Source: Nannocystis sp. RBIL2 (GTDB taxonomy: Bacteria > Myxococcota_A > Polyangia > Nannocystales > Nannocystaceae). From it: a stretch of DNA of 64,000 nucleotides. The DNA is taken from positions 1,446,151 through 1,510,150 of the forward strand of contig NZ_JAPNJW010000002.1 of NCBI RefSeq assembly GCF_026626745.1, in the 5' to 3' direction. The first letter of the stretch is position 1. Every line of letters begins with the position of its first letter. The translations under genes and the position numbers were made by a program. A model generated the notes under the pieces. The model ran no database searches. It was not told the DNA's origin and saw only the letters and a program-made list of their open reading frames with translations. Positions 23,596 to 28,646 of the stretch are shown in pieces.

Positions 23596-24804
23596 ATGCC
23601 CACCGCGCCGCGTCTCCGGATCTCGCTGCAACTGAGCGTCACGGCCCTGGCCCTGCAGGCCTGCCTCGACCCCAACGCCAACACCGAGACCGAGTCGACC
23701 GCCACCGGCCCCGGCACCACCACCAGCGTCGACACCACCGGCGTCTCCCCGAGCGACCCGACCACGGGCGAACCGACCACGAGCGAGCCCGCCACCACCG
23801 CCGAGCCCGTGTGCGGCGACGGCTTCGTCGACGCCGACGAGCAGTGCGACCTCGGCCCCGACAACGCCGACGACGGCGCCTGCACCTCCGACTGTCGCAA
23901 CGCCACGTGCGGCGACGGCCTCGTCGCCAAGGACGCCGAGGAGTGCGACCTCGGCCCCGACAACGCCGACGACGGCGCCTGTACCACCGCCTGCCTCCTG
24001 CCCGCCTGCGGTGACGGCGTCCTCAACGGCGACGAGGTCTGCGACGACGGCACCAACGACGGCACCTACGGCAGCTGCCTCGCCGACTGCAGCGCCGCCG
24101 CCCCCGGCTGCGGCGACGGCCAGGTCGATCCCGAGAACGAGGACTGCGAGGACGGCCCCGACTGCCTGCCCACCTGCCGGTACGCCCACAGCTGCCTCGA
24201 GTGGCTGGAGGCCACCCCCGAGGCCGTCAGCGGCGTCTTCAGCGTCCGCCGCGAAGGCATCATGGACCCGATCGACGTCTGGTGCGCCCTCGATCCGGCC
24301 GTCGACGGCGGCGGTTACACCTTCCTCAAGGTCGACGTCGCCGGCGGCATGAACCCCAACCCGGCCACCGCCGCCACCGCCGAGGCCGCCTGCGCCGACT
24401 GGGGCATGCAGCTGTTCGTCCCGCGCAGCCCGGCGCACCTCGGCGTCGCCTACGAGGTCGCCACCGGCGACAATCTCGAGCCGGTCGGGGGCGGCACGGT
24501 GAAGAGCGGCGCCGATTACCTGCAGATTTTGGGGATCTATCCAGTCACCGCGGGCGAGAGCTGCGTCGACGCGCCGCTCAACGGGCTCGACTGTCCCGAG
24601 TGGCGCGCCGGCGACGACCAGGCGTGGTTCGTCAGCGACGTCGCCGTCGGCAGCGGCGAGCCCGACGAGCTCGGGGCGTGCGAGGGCTGTTCGATGCTCT
24701 ACCAGTGGAACCAGGACGGCAGCGTGAAGAGCTACAAGGCCCTGCCCCAGCCGGGCGGCTACAGCTTCCGCTTCCTGTGCGACACGGGCGATAAATTGCC
24801 CTGA
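23596..24804 (+). CDS. Secreted lipoprotein with myxobacterial Cys-rich repeats and a C-terminal globular domain that is possibly fibrinogen-like or lectin-like.
   Basis: Lipobox 'LALQAC'. Thr-rich linker. Four 'CGDG(x)V...E(E/Q)CD.G' repeats (TIGR02232-type as recalled). The C-terminal region contains 'VWCALDPAVDGGGYTFLKV'. Confidence 0.75.
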   Translation: MPTAPRLRISLQLSVTALALQACLDPNANTETESTATGPGTTTSVDTTGVSPSDPTTGEPTTSEPATTAEPVCGDGFVDADEQCDLGPDNADDGACTSDCRNATCGDGLVAKDAEECDLGPDNADDGACTTACLLPACGDGVLNGDEVCDDGTNDGTYGSCLADCSAAAPGCGDGQVDPENEDCEDGPDCLPTCRYAHSCLEWLEATPEAVSGVFSVRREGIMDPIDVWCALDPAVDGGGYTFLKVDVAGGMNPNPATAATAEAACADWGMQLFVPRSPAHLGVAYEVATGDNLEPVGGGTVKSGADYLQILGIYPVTAGESCVDAPLNGLDCPEWRAGDDQAWFVSDVAVGSGEPDELGACEGCSMLYQWNQDGSVKSYKALPQPGGYSFRFLCDTGDKLP

Positions 24805-24836: not shown

Positions 24837-25703
24837 ATGGCTCGCTTACCTCGCAAAATCGCGCTCCTGGCCCTCCTGGGGCTCGCGTCGGCCTGCATCA
24901 TCGGCGGCGGCAACACCACGAACGACTCCGACTCCGACACCGGCGAGTTCGTGTGCGACGACCCCAACTCGTACCTCGACGGCGAGACCTGCTACTGCAA
25001 CGACGGCTTCGAGTACTGCACCGACGACCCGAACGACCTGTCCTGCTGTCCGGTCGAGGACACCACCACGGTCTCGAGCGTCGGCACCACCACCGTCGAG
25101 CCGACCTCGACCAGCGAGCCGACCACCACCACCGGCCCGACCACCGAGTCGACCACGCTGCCGGAGACCAGCTCGACCACGACCACCACCGAGGCGACCG
25201 CGAGCACCACCGAGACCACTGACACCAGCGAGGGCACCACCACCGGCGGCGTCGAGTGCCAGGGCGAGCAGCCGCCGCCCGAGAACTGCCAGAACGGCCA
25301 GTTCTGGTGCACGATGACCGAGGCCTGCGGCCCCGAGGGCAGCCAGGTCTACCGCTGCGACGGCGCCACCTGGGTGCTCGAGCCCAACCTCGCCAAGGAC
25401 AGCTGCAGCTTCGACGGCTACGACTTCGCCTACGGCTGCGTCGACACCGGCAAGACCGTCGAGTTCATCTGCGGCGACGGCCCCGGCACCGCCTGCGAGA
25501 ACAGCGACCCCGCCAGCTGCGAGGACGACACCAACCTCAACACCTGCATCTACGGCAAGCTGTCGCAGTTCGACTGCTTCGTCCAGTGTACCGAGGTCGG
25601 CGACGCCATGATGGCCCTGTACGACCACGGCTTCTGCGGCGACGACATGGGCACCTCCGTCTGCCTCTGCTGCGACATGGGCGAGCCCGGCTGCCCCGTC
25701 TGA
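24837..25703 (+). CDS. Cys-rich secreted lipoprotein with a Thr-rich linker.
   Basis: Signal peptide plus lipobox 'LGLASAC'. A long Thr/Ser/Glu linker. More than 20 Cys in the two globular segments. Confidence 0.7.
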   Translation: MARLPRKIALLALLGLASACIIGGGNTTNDSDSDTGEFVCDDPNSYLDGETCYCNDGFEYCTDDPNDLSCCPVEDTTTVSSVGTTTVEPTSTSEPTTTTGPTTESTTLPETSSTTTTTEATASTTETTDTSEGTTTGGVECQGEQPPPENCQNGQFWCTMTEACGPEGSQVYRCDGATWVLEPNLAKDSCSFDGYDFAYGCVDTGKTVEFICGDGPGTACENSDPASCEDDTNLNTCIYGKLSQFDCFVQCTEVGDAMMALYDHGFCGDDMGTSVCLCCDMGEPGCPV

Positions 25704-25960
25704 CCTGTCCCACAGACCAGGTCCGCCCGCGCGACCGCCACCGCGGGCCGGACCTGTCCCACCGGCCAGGTCCGGCCGCCCCGGGCGGACGCGCGAACGG
25801 CTCCGTGGCCAGAACCTGCCCCATCGGCCAGGTCCGGCCGGACCGGCCGGACGACCGCGCCGCGAGCGAGCAGAGCCGCCCTCGCGCGGCTCCCGGCGGC
25901 CCGTTCGCCCGCCGTCCGACCAGCGTCGCGCCGCCGCCCCGGACCGGCTACCATCCCCGC

Positions 25961-26206
25961 GTGACTCGCCTCTACAACAAGCAGACCGGCGCCCTGATCG
26001 GACCTATCACCGACGACCAGCTGCGCGACCTCATCGATCTCCTCGTCGAGGAGAGCGCCGACGACCGCGACTACTACATCGACCGCGACACCCTCGATTA
26101 CCTCGAGGAGAACCAGGTCGACGCCGAGCTGCTCGCCCTCCTGCGCAAGCACGTGCCCGAGGAGGGCGAGGGCATCGACATCGAGTGGCGCGACGAGCCC
26201 GCCTGA
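25961..26206 (+). CDS. Small acidic hypothetical protein (81 aa, GTG start).
   Basis: GTG at 25961, in frame inside the long ORF 25256..26206. The sequence 'LIGPITDDQLRDLIDLLVEESADDRDYYIDRDTLDYLEENQVDAELLALLRKHVPEEGEGIDIEWRDEPA' is strongly acidic. The gene is flanked by an operator-like palindrome triplet and by 3'-end repeat copies. Confidence 0.5.
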   Translation: MTRLYNKQTGALIGPITDDQLRDLIDLLVEESADDRDYYIDRDTLDYLEENQVDAELLALLRKHVPEEGEGIDIEWRDEPA

Positions 26207-26720
26207 GCTCTTCGCATTGTCGATGCTCTCGCTGCCCGAGGCGACGCGAGCATCGACTTCGAGCGGCCCGACCCGCCGGCGTGACCCGGCCCCGAGCTGC
26301 TCGCAGAGCTGCCCTGAGGAGGGCGAGCGCATCGACTTCGGGTGGCGCGACCCGCCGGCGTGACCCGGGTCCGGACGCATCCCCTTCGCCGGCATCGGCG
26401 CCGAGTCTTCCCACGGCGCGCCTCCTCTCGACCCGTCCTCGCCACGGAAGCGATCGCTGCGCTCCACCTTCGTGGTCCTCGCCTCGCCCGCGTGAGGACC
26501 CGCCGCGCCTGCCGTCTTCTCGTCGCTATCGCGCGGCGGACTGCTCCGACCTGACGGCCGCGTAACGGTCCGCGCACGGACGCGCTGCATCTTTCCTCCG
26601 ACGCTGCTCCGCGGGCGCGGCTTCGGCCGGATGGGTGGGCTCAGGGCGCACCTGCCCGCGGACGTCGCCTGCGGCGGCGCGAGTTGCCGGCCTTCGCTCG
26701 ACTCTCGTACCCTGGCGAGC

Positions 26721-28646
26721 ATGCTCGCTTACAGCTTCGCTTGTCGTTCGCTGGGTCTCGTGATGCTCGCCTCGGCCCTCGCCTGTGGTCGCACCGACAC
26801 TGCAGTGCTCACGGACACCGGCACCGGCACCACCGACACTGACGGCACCACCACTGCAGGCAGCACCACCGGCCCCGACTTGCCGACCACCACCGCGCCG
26901 ACTACCGAGACCGGCACGATCGGCGGCACCGAGACCGGCACCACCCTCGAGCCGACCACCGGGCCTGCCACCGACACCGCGATCACGAGCACCGACGGCA
27001 CGGTCACCGACGGCACCATCACCGACGGCACCACCACCTCGACCACGACTTCGACCTCGACCACCACCACCACCGGCGAGACCGACAGCACCACCGGCCC
27101 GCCGCCGATCTGCGGCGACGGTCAGGTCGATCCGGGCGAGGAGTGCGACGACGGCGACCTCGTCGACCTCAACGCCTGCTCCAACGCCTGCATCGCCGCC
27201 GTGTGCGGCGACGGCATCGTCCAGGAGCTCGTGGGCGAGGAGTGCGACGACGGCAACGACATCGAGGGCGACGGCTGTTCGACCGGCTGTCGCCTCCCCG
27301 TCTGCGGCGACAGCATCGTCCAGATCACCGAGGAGTGCGACGACGGCAACCTCGACGACGGCGACGATTGCACCAACGCCTGCACCACCGCCGTGTGCGG
27401 CGACGGCGTCGTCCAGGTCGGCGTCGAGCCGTGCGACGACGGCAACGACCTCGACAACGACGACTGTCTGGTCGGCTGCATCCTCGCCGAGTGCGGCGAC
27501 GGCATCGTCCACGACCTGCTCGAGGCCTGCGACGACGGCAACGACGTCAACGACGACACCTGCACCAACGAGTGCGCCCTCGCCACCTGCGGCGACGGCA
27601 TCTTGCAGATGGACGAGGAGTGCGACGACGGCAACGCCCTCGACGACGACGCCTGCACCACCCTGTGCAAGCTCGCGGTGTGCGGCGACGGCTTCGTCCT
27701 CGCCGGCACCGAGGCCTGCGACGACGCCGGCAACAGCCCCGCCTGCGACAGCGACTGCACCCTCCCGCAGTGCGGCGACGCCCACCACAACCCGGCCAGC
27801 GGCGAGGCGTGCGACACCGGCGGCGACAGCCCCACGTGCGACAGCGACTGCACCCTCGCGGTGTGCGGCGACAAGACCGTCAACGGCGCCGCCGGCGAGA
27901 CCTGCGACGCCGGCACCGAGACCGCCACCTGCGACGACGACTGCACCGCCGTCGTCTGCGGCGACGAGGTCCTCAACGAGAGCGCCGGCGAGGCCTGCGA
28001 TCACGGCAGCCAGACCTCCACCTGCGACCTCGACTGCACCTTCGCCGCCTGCAACGACGGCGTCATCAACAGCGCCGCCGGCGAGAACTGCGAGGACGGC
28101 AACCTCGCCGAGGGTGACGGCTGCAGCTCGAAGTGCAAGGCGCACAAGGTCGTGTTCGCCACCAGCCAGGGCTTCGACGGCAACCTCGGCGGCCTCGCCG
28201 GCGCCGACATGAAGTGCCAGGCCGCCGCCCAGGCCGCCGGCCTCCCCGGCACCTACCGCGCCTGGCTGAGCGACGACACCGGCACCCCCGTCACCCGCTT
28301 CACCAAGTCGGCCATCCCCTACGCCCGCCGCGACGGCGTCCTCGTCGCCAACAACTGGGCCGACCTCATCGACGGCAACATCGCCGCCGCCATCAACCTC
28401 TCCGAGCTCAAGACCCCGCCCGGCTCCGACGCCAACGTCTGCGGCGGCGTCTCCCAGCTCACCTTCACCAACACGATCACCAACGGCACCATGTTCACGG
28501 ACTTCACCGATTGCCAGAACTGGACCAGCAACGCCCCCGGCTTCACCGGCGGCGGCCAGTGGAACAAGGCCGACGGCCTGTGGACGCAATTCGTCTGCCA
28601 GCAATCGTGCGCCTGGAAGAAGCCGATCTACTGCTTCATGCAATAG
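26721..28646 (+). CDS. Lipoprotein with about 12 myxobacterial Cys-rich repeats and a C-terminal DUF1554-like domain.
   Basis: Lipobox 'ASALAC'. Thr-rich linker. Reiterated 'CGDG.V...EECDDGN...DGC...C' units. The C-terminal 'KVVFATSQGFDGNLGGLAGADMKCQAAAQAAGL...YRAWLSD' matches the DUF1554 pattern as recalled. Confidence 0.8.
   Translation: MLAYSFACRSLGLVMLASALACGRTDTAVLTDTGTGTTDTDGTTTAGSTTGPDLPTTTAPTTETGTIGGTETGTTLEPTTGPATDTAITSTDGTVTDGTITDGTTTSTTTSTSTTTTTGETDSTTGPPPICGDGQVDPGEECDDGDLVDLNACSNACIAAVCGDGIVQELVGEECDDGNDIEGDGCSTGCRLPVCGDSIVQITEECDDGNLDDGDDCTNACTTAVCGDGVVQVGVEPCDDGNDLDNDDCLVGCILAECGDGIVHDLLEACDDGNDVNDDTCTNECALATCGDGILQMDEECDDGNALDDDACTTLCKLAVCGDGFVLAGTEACDDAGNSPACDSDCTLPQCGDAHHNPASGEACDTGGDSPTCDSDCTLAVCGDKTVNGAAGETCDAGTETATCDDDCTAVVCGDEVLNESAGEACDHGSQTSTCDLDCTFAACNDGVINSAAGENCEDGNLAEGDGCSSKCKAHKVVFATSQGFDGNLGGLAGADMKCQAAAQAAGLPGTYRAWLSDDTGTPVTRFTKSAIPYARRDGVLVANNWADLIDGNIAAAINLSELKTPPGSDANVCGGVSQLTFTNTITNGTMFTDFTDCQNWTSNAPGFTGGGQWNKADGLWTQFVCQQSCAWKKPIYCFMQ

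Follow-up and report, generated by a model that had tools for sequence, protein, structure and literature searches.

In a 64-kb stretch of very GC-rich DNA from a Nannocystis-like myxobacterium (hereafter, the window, meaning the whole stretch that was analyzed), the last ~85 nt of a gene for an 81-aa acidic protein, including the stop codon, recur twice downstream of the gene, arranged head to tail. We consider it likely, with a probability of roughly 0.8, that these units form a lineage-specific minisatellite of variable copy number, which would have originated by tandem duplication of the gene terminus, with slippage or template switching as the trigger, and which is most probably functionless. 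The initial annotation of the locus had described a decayed tandem duplication of a gene terminus, and this description is upheld by our analysis: the units follow each other head to tail, extend a few bases past the stop codon, and vary in number among close strains, whereas outgroups are devoid of the copies. The coordinates of the features and the state of the locus in related sequences are given in Table 1.

The recurrence of the gene end was assessed by pairwise alignment and by profile search. When the final 84 nt of the gene were compared with the next 514 nt by Smith-Waterman alignment, copies 3 and 2 scored 66 and 45, respectively, whereas 500 shuffles reached a maximum of 32 (mean 19.3, sd 2.6). 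An nhmmer profile of the unit yielded exactly three contiguous matches in the 64-kb window (E values from 1e-16 to 1e-19) and nothing else at E < 0.1, confirming that the 3′ end of the gene occurs twice more immediately downstream, as initially reported. The 51-nt cores of this repeat family, designated D1, are spaced by 78 nt and then by 79 nt. Identity between units within the array is 57-75%, and the array was too decayed to be reported by Tandem Repeats Finder, even at min_score 30.

Several details of the original description require correction. The copies had been said to diverge progressively, whereas copy 3 (75% identity over the unit and 84% over the core) is nearer to the gene than copy 2 (57% and 69%, respectively). 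They had also been said to end, each of them, in ccgccggcgtgacccgg, but this ending is limited to copies 2 and 3: the exact 17-mer CCGCCGGCGTGACCCGG has 2 occurrences in the window, at the ends of unit 2 (26273-26289) and unit 3 (26352-26368), unlike the gene's own ending, which is gagcccgccTGAgctc (GAGCCCGCCTGAGCTC). Finally, the peptide strings given for the copies mixed reading frames, the 5′ part of copy 2 being gene-like in one frame and its 3′ part in another. Unit 2 contains a pseudo-stop TGA at 26282-26284, and unit 3, which differs from unit 1 by a deletion of 11-12 nt and a 1-nt frame change, contains an internal TGA (26315-26317) and a pseudo-stop TGA (26361-26363). Two further candidates, namely, a fourth, older relic at 26391-26406 (D5) and a 14-mer held in common with the N. 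exedens spacer, were rejected as relics of the unit, as neither had support in the profile search.

Table 1. Features of the small-gene locus in the window, followed by the state of the locus in related sequences
Feature or locus	Coordinates	Strand	Description
81-aa acidic protein gene	25961-26206	+	GTG start 25961, TGA stop 26204-26206; from the ORF list
Unit 1, coding/ancestral copy	26116-26206	+	Encodes ...VDAELLALLRKHVPEEGEGIDIEWRDEPA followed by the stop; nhmmer 26116-26212, E=2.9e-16; D1 core 26156-26206 (reference)
Unit 2, non-coding, most remodelled copy	26207-26289	+	nhmmer 26204-26293, E=3.4e-17; D1 core 26234-26284, 69% identical to unit 1
Unit 3, non-coding	26290-26374	+	nhmmer 26287-26374, E=1.3e-19; D1 core 26313-26363, 84% identical to unit 1
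Quasi-palindrome in unit 1	26118-26184	+	Arms 26118-26142 and 26160-26184, 76% complementary; inverted repeat I4
Strong hairpin in unit 2	26219-26257	+	GTCGATGCTCTCGCTGCC / GGCGACGCGAGCATCGAC, 3-nt loop; inverted repeat I12; MFE -24.4 kcal/mol
Ordinary intergenic spacer, common to array-less strains	26383-26720	+	L010 alignment resumes at ~26383; distal part 92-93% identical among the window, L008 and L010
Second variable tandem array, upstream spacer	25702-25851		Three ~29-nt palindromic motifs at 25702, 25751 and 25813
L008, contig with identical 81-aa protein	2403-2499, 2491-2586, 2574-2647, 2651-2736 (of the contig)		Four units (3 extra)
L009, contig with identical 81-aa protein			Gene unit and start of unit 2, then contig end (at least 1 extra)
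L010, contig with identical protein			CDS 100% identical to the window; gene unit only (0 extra)
N. exedens, N. bainbridge, L007			Gene followed by a spacer of 271-479 nt; gene unit only
L011-L019			Next gene within about 50-250 nt; gene unit only
L001 and L020-L043, more distant relatives			Repeated terminus in 0 of 22 testable loci

The gene that supplied the repeat terminates in ...AELLALLRKHVPEEGEGIDIEWRDEPA and the stop codon, and its product is 98% identical to a protein of Nannocystis exedens and 96% identical to one of N. bainbridge. The 22 homologs of the 81-aa protein align over its full length, and the C-terminal block L-L-R-x-x-V-P-E-E-G-E-G-I-D-I-E-W-R-D is among their best conserved parts, which indicates that the 3′ end of the gene is ancient and constrained; the true C-terminus, VPEEGEGIDIEWRD, is nearly invariant in the 22 homologs and is extended in none of them. 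A contig scan with the single 81-aa protein included at least one distant acidobacterial locus among the matches listed. The protein was assigned to no family by Pfam or NCBIfam, and a profile search against the PDB returned only insignificant matches (E ≥ 0.05). Some sources label this ~80-aa family "galactosyldiacylglycerol synthase" or "processive diacylglycerol beta-glucosyltransferase"; given that the protein has merely ~80 aa, these enzyme names are probably propagated misannotations. The annotation of N. exedens gives a 123-aa form with an upstream start, a start that the alignment does not back.

In a multiple alignment of the units from the window and two related contigs, all non-coding units are without the same 11-12 nt (GCAAGCACGTG, K-H-V codons), so that their frame is broken. 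Because every extra copy carries this same frame-breaking deletion, a single decayed duplicate appears to have been duplicated again. A derived form, ...TCGCTGCCC... (CTCGCCTCGCTGCCC), is present in most non-coding units, and the derived ending GACCCGCCGGCGTGACCCGG is common to units 2 and 3, whereas the gene copy can be taken as the ancestral state, since its VPEEGEGIDIEWRD is conserved in the 22 homologs. From these shared changes, we infer the following order of events. The last ~85-90 bp of the gene, through the stop codon and a few bases past it, would have been duplicated downstream of the intact gene; the duplicate, freed from coding constraint, would have lost GCAAGCACGTG, and its ending would have changed from GACGAGCCCGCCTGA to GACCCGCCGGCGTGA; the decayed unit would then have been duplicated again, bringing the number of extra units to two in the window and to three in L008; and later unit-sized and small indels would have shifted the copy number further. 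The extra units would accordingly persist as untranslated relics in the 3′ untranslated or intergenic region, making the spacer ~176 nt longer.

The likely trigger of the duplication would be slipped-strand mispairing or template switching at the gene's 25-nt quasi-palindrome. The latter results, fortuitously, from the codons for LALL (CTC GCC CTC CTG) being the reverse complement of those for EEGE (GAG GAG GGC GAG), and the RNA of unit 1 is predicted to fold at -47.5 kcal/mol (z=-2.68 relative to shuffles). According to two studies, quasi-palindromes are established hotspots for slippage and template-switch mutation (PMC7202029; PMC8794818), and a role of this quasi-palindrome as the duplication trigger is plausible.

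Comparison of orthologous loci for copy-number variation, a check suggested in the initial annotation, revealed 0, at least 1 or 3 extra copies in close strains (Table 1). In L010, the stop codon is followed by a short stretch and then by sequence matching the window from ~26383 onward, ~176 nt being absent. The units are orthologous between strains, with identities of 85% and 88% between the second unit of the window and those of L008 and L009, respectively, and of 79.5% between the third units of the window and L008, from which it follows that the array is older than the split of these strains. Between the window and L008, the array differs by one unit-sized indel (roughly 62-75 nt) and by a 5-nt indel between orthologous units; the two sequences are 99.2% identical in the CDS and 93% in the distal spacer, but only 82.6%, with 81 gap columns in addition, in the repeat zone, which looks to be under relaxed constraint when judged by this sequence comparison. 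The window, L008 and L010 are about equidistant (92-93% identity in the distal spacer), and this equidistance is compatible with loss of the array in L010 as well as with its absence from the outset, and with either direction of the one-unit difference between the window and L008. For the more distant relatives, a profile-based metagenome scan provided 24 loci, 21 of which had enough downstream sequence; together with L001, these are the 22 loci tested.

Among the alternatives to a neutral minisatellite, the one that best withstands scrutiny, although we regard it as unlikely, is that the units constitute a functional array of 3′-UTR stem-loops, which was recruited from coding sequence and kept by selection as a terminator, a protector of the 3′ end or a source of a 3′-UTR-derived small RNA. 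All units descend from a quasi-palindrome, and the predicted fold of the whole 341-nt region is slightly more stable than that of shuffles (z=-1.96). Among the single units, unit 1 (see above) and, modestly, unit 2 of the window (z=-1.67) and of L008 (z=-2.05) also exceed shuffles, but units 3 and 4 show no such advantage (z=-0.32, -0.47 and +0.28). The 5′ arm of unit 2 is now an almost exact complement of the 3′ arm, and in L008 the hairpin has a folding energy of -25.6 kcal/mol despite 6 substitutions and the 5-nt indel. When one unit 2 sequence was randomly mutated into the other, this stability was attained in about 2% of 2000 trials in each direction (p about 0.02), a crude simulation that was conducted post hoc and on the sole structured-looking unit.

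In favor of this alternative, a conserved promoter-like block apparently serves the downstream gene separately, so that the transcript of the small gene must end within the spacer, but there is no U-tract or terminator consensus at the units: a consensus scan of 25650-26800 for intrinsic terminators and promoters found none, with no T-run after the hairpins, and Rfam gave no match at E ≤ 1 on either strand of 25600-26800. Moreover, neither N. exedens, N. bainbridge nor, despite its identical protein, L010 has the array; the repeat zone diverges faster than the flanking spacer; and template-switch mutation could preserve a palindrome without selection. Retention of the unit 2 hairpin is the only functional hint, and either weak selection for a 3′ stem-loop or palindrome-perfecting template switching could account for it. 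It is accordingly improbable, in our estimate, that coding sequence has here been recycled into a structured 3′-UTR element, with the hairpin at 26219-26257 maintained, by selection or by self-correcting template switching, as a stem-loop that ends or stabilizes the transcript. If it had been, the locus would offer a small, datable case of a regulatory hairpin born de novo from a gene terminus, and a functional unit 2 hairpin would illustrate how 3′-UTR structure can arise from coding sequence. Under the minisatellite reading, the same hairpin would amount to at most one added stem-loop at the 3′ end of the transcript.

The initial annotation had further suggested that the copies may supply alternative C-termini by recombination or frameshifting, and the same can be envisaged for read-through of the stop codon or programmed frameshifting into the units. 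We consider such a reservoir very unlikely. The core of unit 2 in the window lies exactly 78 nt (26 codons) past that of unit 1 and is therefore in frame, such that read-through of the TGA at 26204-26206 would append ALRIVDALAARGDASIDFERPDPPA before the next stop; however, in-frame spacing would occur by accident in one case out of three, and in L008, due to the 5-nt indel, the read-through peptide is unrelated and lies in another frame. Similarly, a 48-aa ORF (26217-26363) ends in EEGERIDFGWRDPPA followed by a stop, resembling the real gene end, but the frame-breaking deletion of 11-12 nt is common to all extra units, and each of the three frames across 26204-26375 contains stops or switches register. 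Orthologous copies differ by indels of 5 nt and of roughly 62-75 nt, which are not multiples of three, and hence have no reading frame in common. Consistently, no extended reading frame conserved among relatives was found in the window, L008 and the 22 homologs, and no intact alternative coding sequence was found when the downstream copies were examined as potential silent cassettes or orphan C-terminal modules. An extended or variant C-terminus is present in 0 of the 22 homologs, few parts of the protein are as well conserved as its terminus, and L010 encodes the identical protein without any extra unit. The ORF at 26217-26363 and similar ORFs should hence be treated in annotation as relics rather than genes.

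Equally hard to sustain is the idea that the units overlap the gene end by chance, being either copies of a palindromic element of the interspersed or mobile type (REP, MITE or attC-like) or what remains of an attachment-site duplication by an integrated element. Such an origin would account for palindromic units located directly after a stop codon and for the presence of a second variable repeat array upstream at the same locus, but dispersed copies are lacking: the profile search recovered, at E < 0.1, nothing besides the gene's own end and the tandem units in either the 64-kb window or the 43 fetched loci, the 17-mer occurs in the window only at the two unit ends, and the metagenome collection contained 0 matches to a degenerate 32-nt pattern representing the ending of the non-coding units. 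The units are, furthermore, directly adjacent, with no cargo between them, and they derive from a founder copy whose coding sequence is both ancient and conserved. An assembly artefact, that is, a collapsed or expanded repeat, has a negligible probability, because beyond the general risk in GC-rich repeats nothing points to it, units that are just 57-75% identical are too different to confuse an assembler, and the misassembly mentioned as a caveat in the initial annotation is contradicted by orthologous, diverged versions of the array in the independent assemblies L008 (3 samples) and L009, which stem from other sequencing runs.

The upstream array varies between strains as well. Its first copy starts at the stop codon of the preceding gene (288 aa), and its motif, GACCTGTCCCAC(C/A)G(G/A)CCAGGTCCG, is embedded in a 62-nt period of 81% identity; there are 7 copies in L008, about 6-7 in N. 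exedens, 2 each in L009 and L010, and none in N. bainbridge and L007. In N. exedens, one additional gene is inserted between this array and the small gene (L002 1780-2970, corresponding to ~25850-25900 of the window). It codes for a 367-aa cysteine-rich putative lipoprotein without a Pfam match, is absent from the window and follows a stretch (aaatttagcaattgaatgagtcattaaagcctgctttatctacaaaATG) whose AT content is striking for a genome of otherwise ~70% GC. On the other side, the block GCGCGAGTTGCCGGCCTTCGCTCGACTCTCGTACCCTGGCGAGCATG (26680-26723) is almost invariant in four Nannocystis loci, whereas the rest of the spacer varies. This block includes a -35-like TTGCCG (26684-26689) and, after an 18-nt spacer, a -10-like TACCCT (26708-26713) located 7 nt before the ATG at 26721; if it is read as a promoter on the basis of these motifs, the mRNA for the 641-aa cysteine-rich repeat protein encoded downstream would be leaderless or nearly so. 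The consensus scanner called no promoter at 26680-26723.

The genes at 23596-24804, 24837-25703 and 26721-28646 encode secreted or lipoprotein-like proteins rich in Thr/Pro linkers and in myxobacterial cysteine-rich acidic repeats (TIGR02232 / DUF4215). Within this cluster, one fibrinogen-like GGGWT match fell below threshold and one endostatin-like C-terminal match just below the Pfam cut-off. Strong tandem repeats in this region of the window are limited to the internal 93-99-nt coding repeats of the flanking cluster.

The locus carries little weight for biology at large, but it cleanly illustrates how the end of a gene can be duplicated, escape constraint and be amplified again to form an intergenic minisatellite, with the intact ancestor preserved beside its decaying descendants and with strains caught at 0, 2 and 3 extra copies. 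For this Nannocystis group, the array could possibly serve as a strain-typing marker.

Among known systems, the orphan modules of cdiA-CT and rhs-CT and the silent pilS cassettes are intact, diversified coding modules, often accompanied by immunity genes and by a homology block for recombination. The Nannocystis array resembles them in that partial copies of a 3′ end lie in tandem directly downstream of an intact gene, but its units are about 80 nt long, frame-broken and not diversified, and the real C-terminus is invariant. A repeat of a gene 3′ end just outside the gene is also reminiscent of the TR/VR pair of diversity-generating retroelements. A pair of this kind was considered and rejected: the mismatches between units 1 and 3 fall at C, T and G of the non-coding copy, together with an indel, and not at adenines. 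No reverse transcriptase was found among the four genes around the locus in a Pfam/NCBIfam screen.

The array further resembles quasi-palindrome template-switch mutation (PMC7202029; PMC8794818) in that the duplicated segment is an imperfect inverted repeat and the stem persists despite sequence change. Classically, template switching perfects or inverts a palindrome, which does not by itself account for a tandem duplication; its contribution here would be that of a presumptive trigger.

As a kind, the array is already well known: a gene terminus was duplicated in tandem, decayed and became a small, strain-variable intergenic minisatellite. Bacterial minisatellites, or VNTR loci, arise by slipped-strand mispairing or unequal recombination. 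The Nannocystis array matches them in its head-to-tail units of tens of bases, its intergenic location, the unit-sized indels between strains and a copy number that differs among close strains (0, 2 or 3 extra units). Unlike the near-identical units of the usual VNTR, those of Nannocystis are old and strongly decayed (57-75%), and for this reason the array no longer behaves as a fast contingency locus. It also departs from the usual VNTR in having been founded by coding sequence, namely, by the 3′ end of a conserved gene together with its stop codon.
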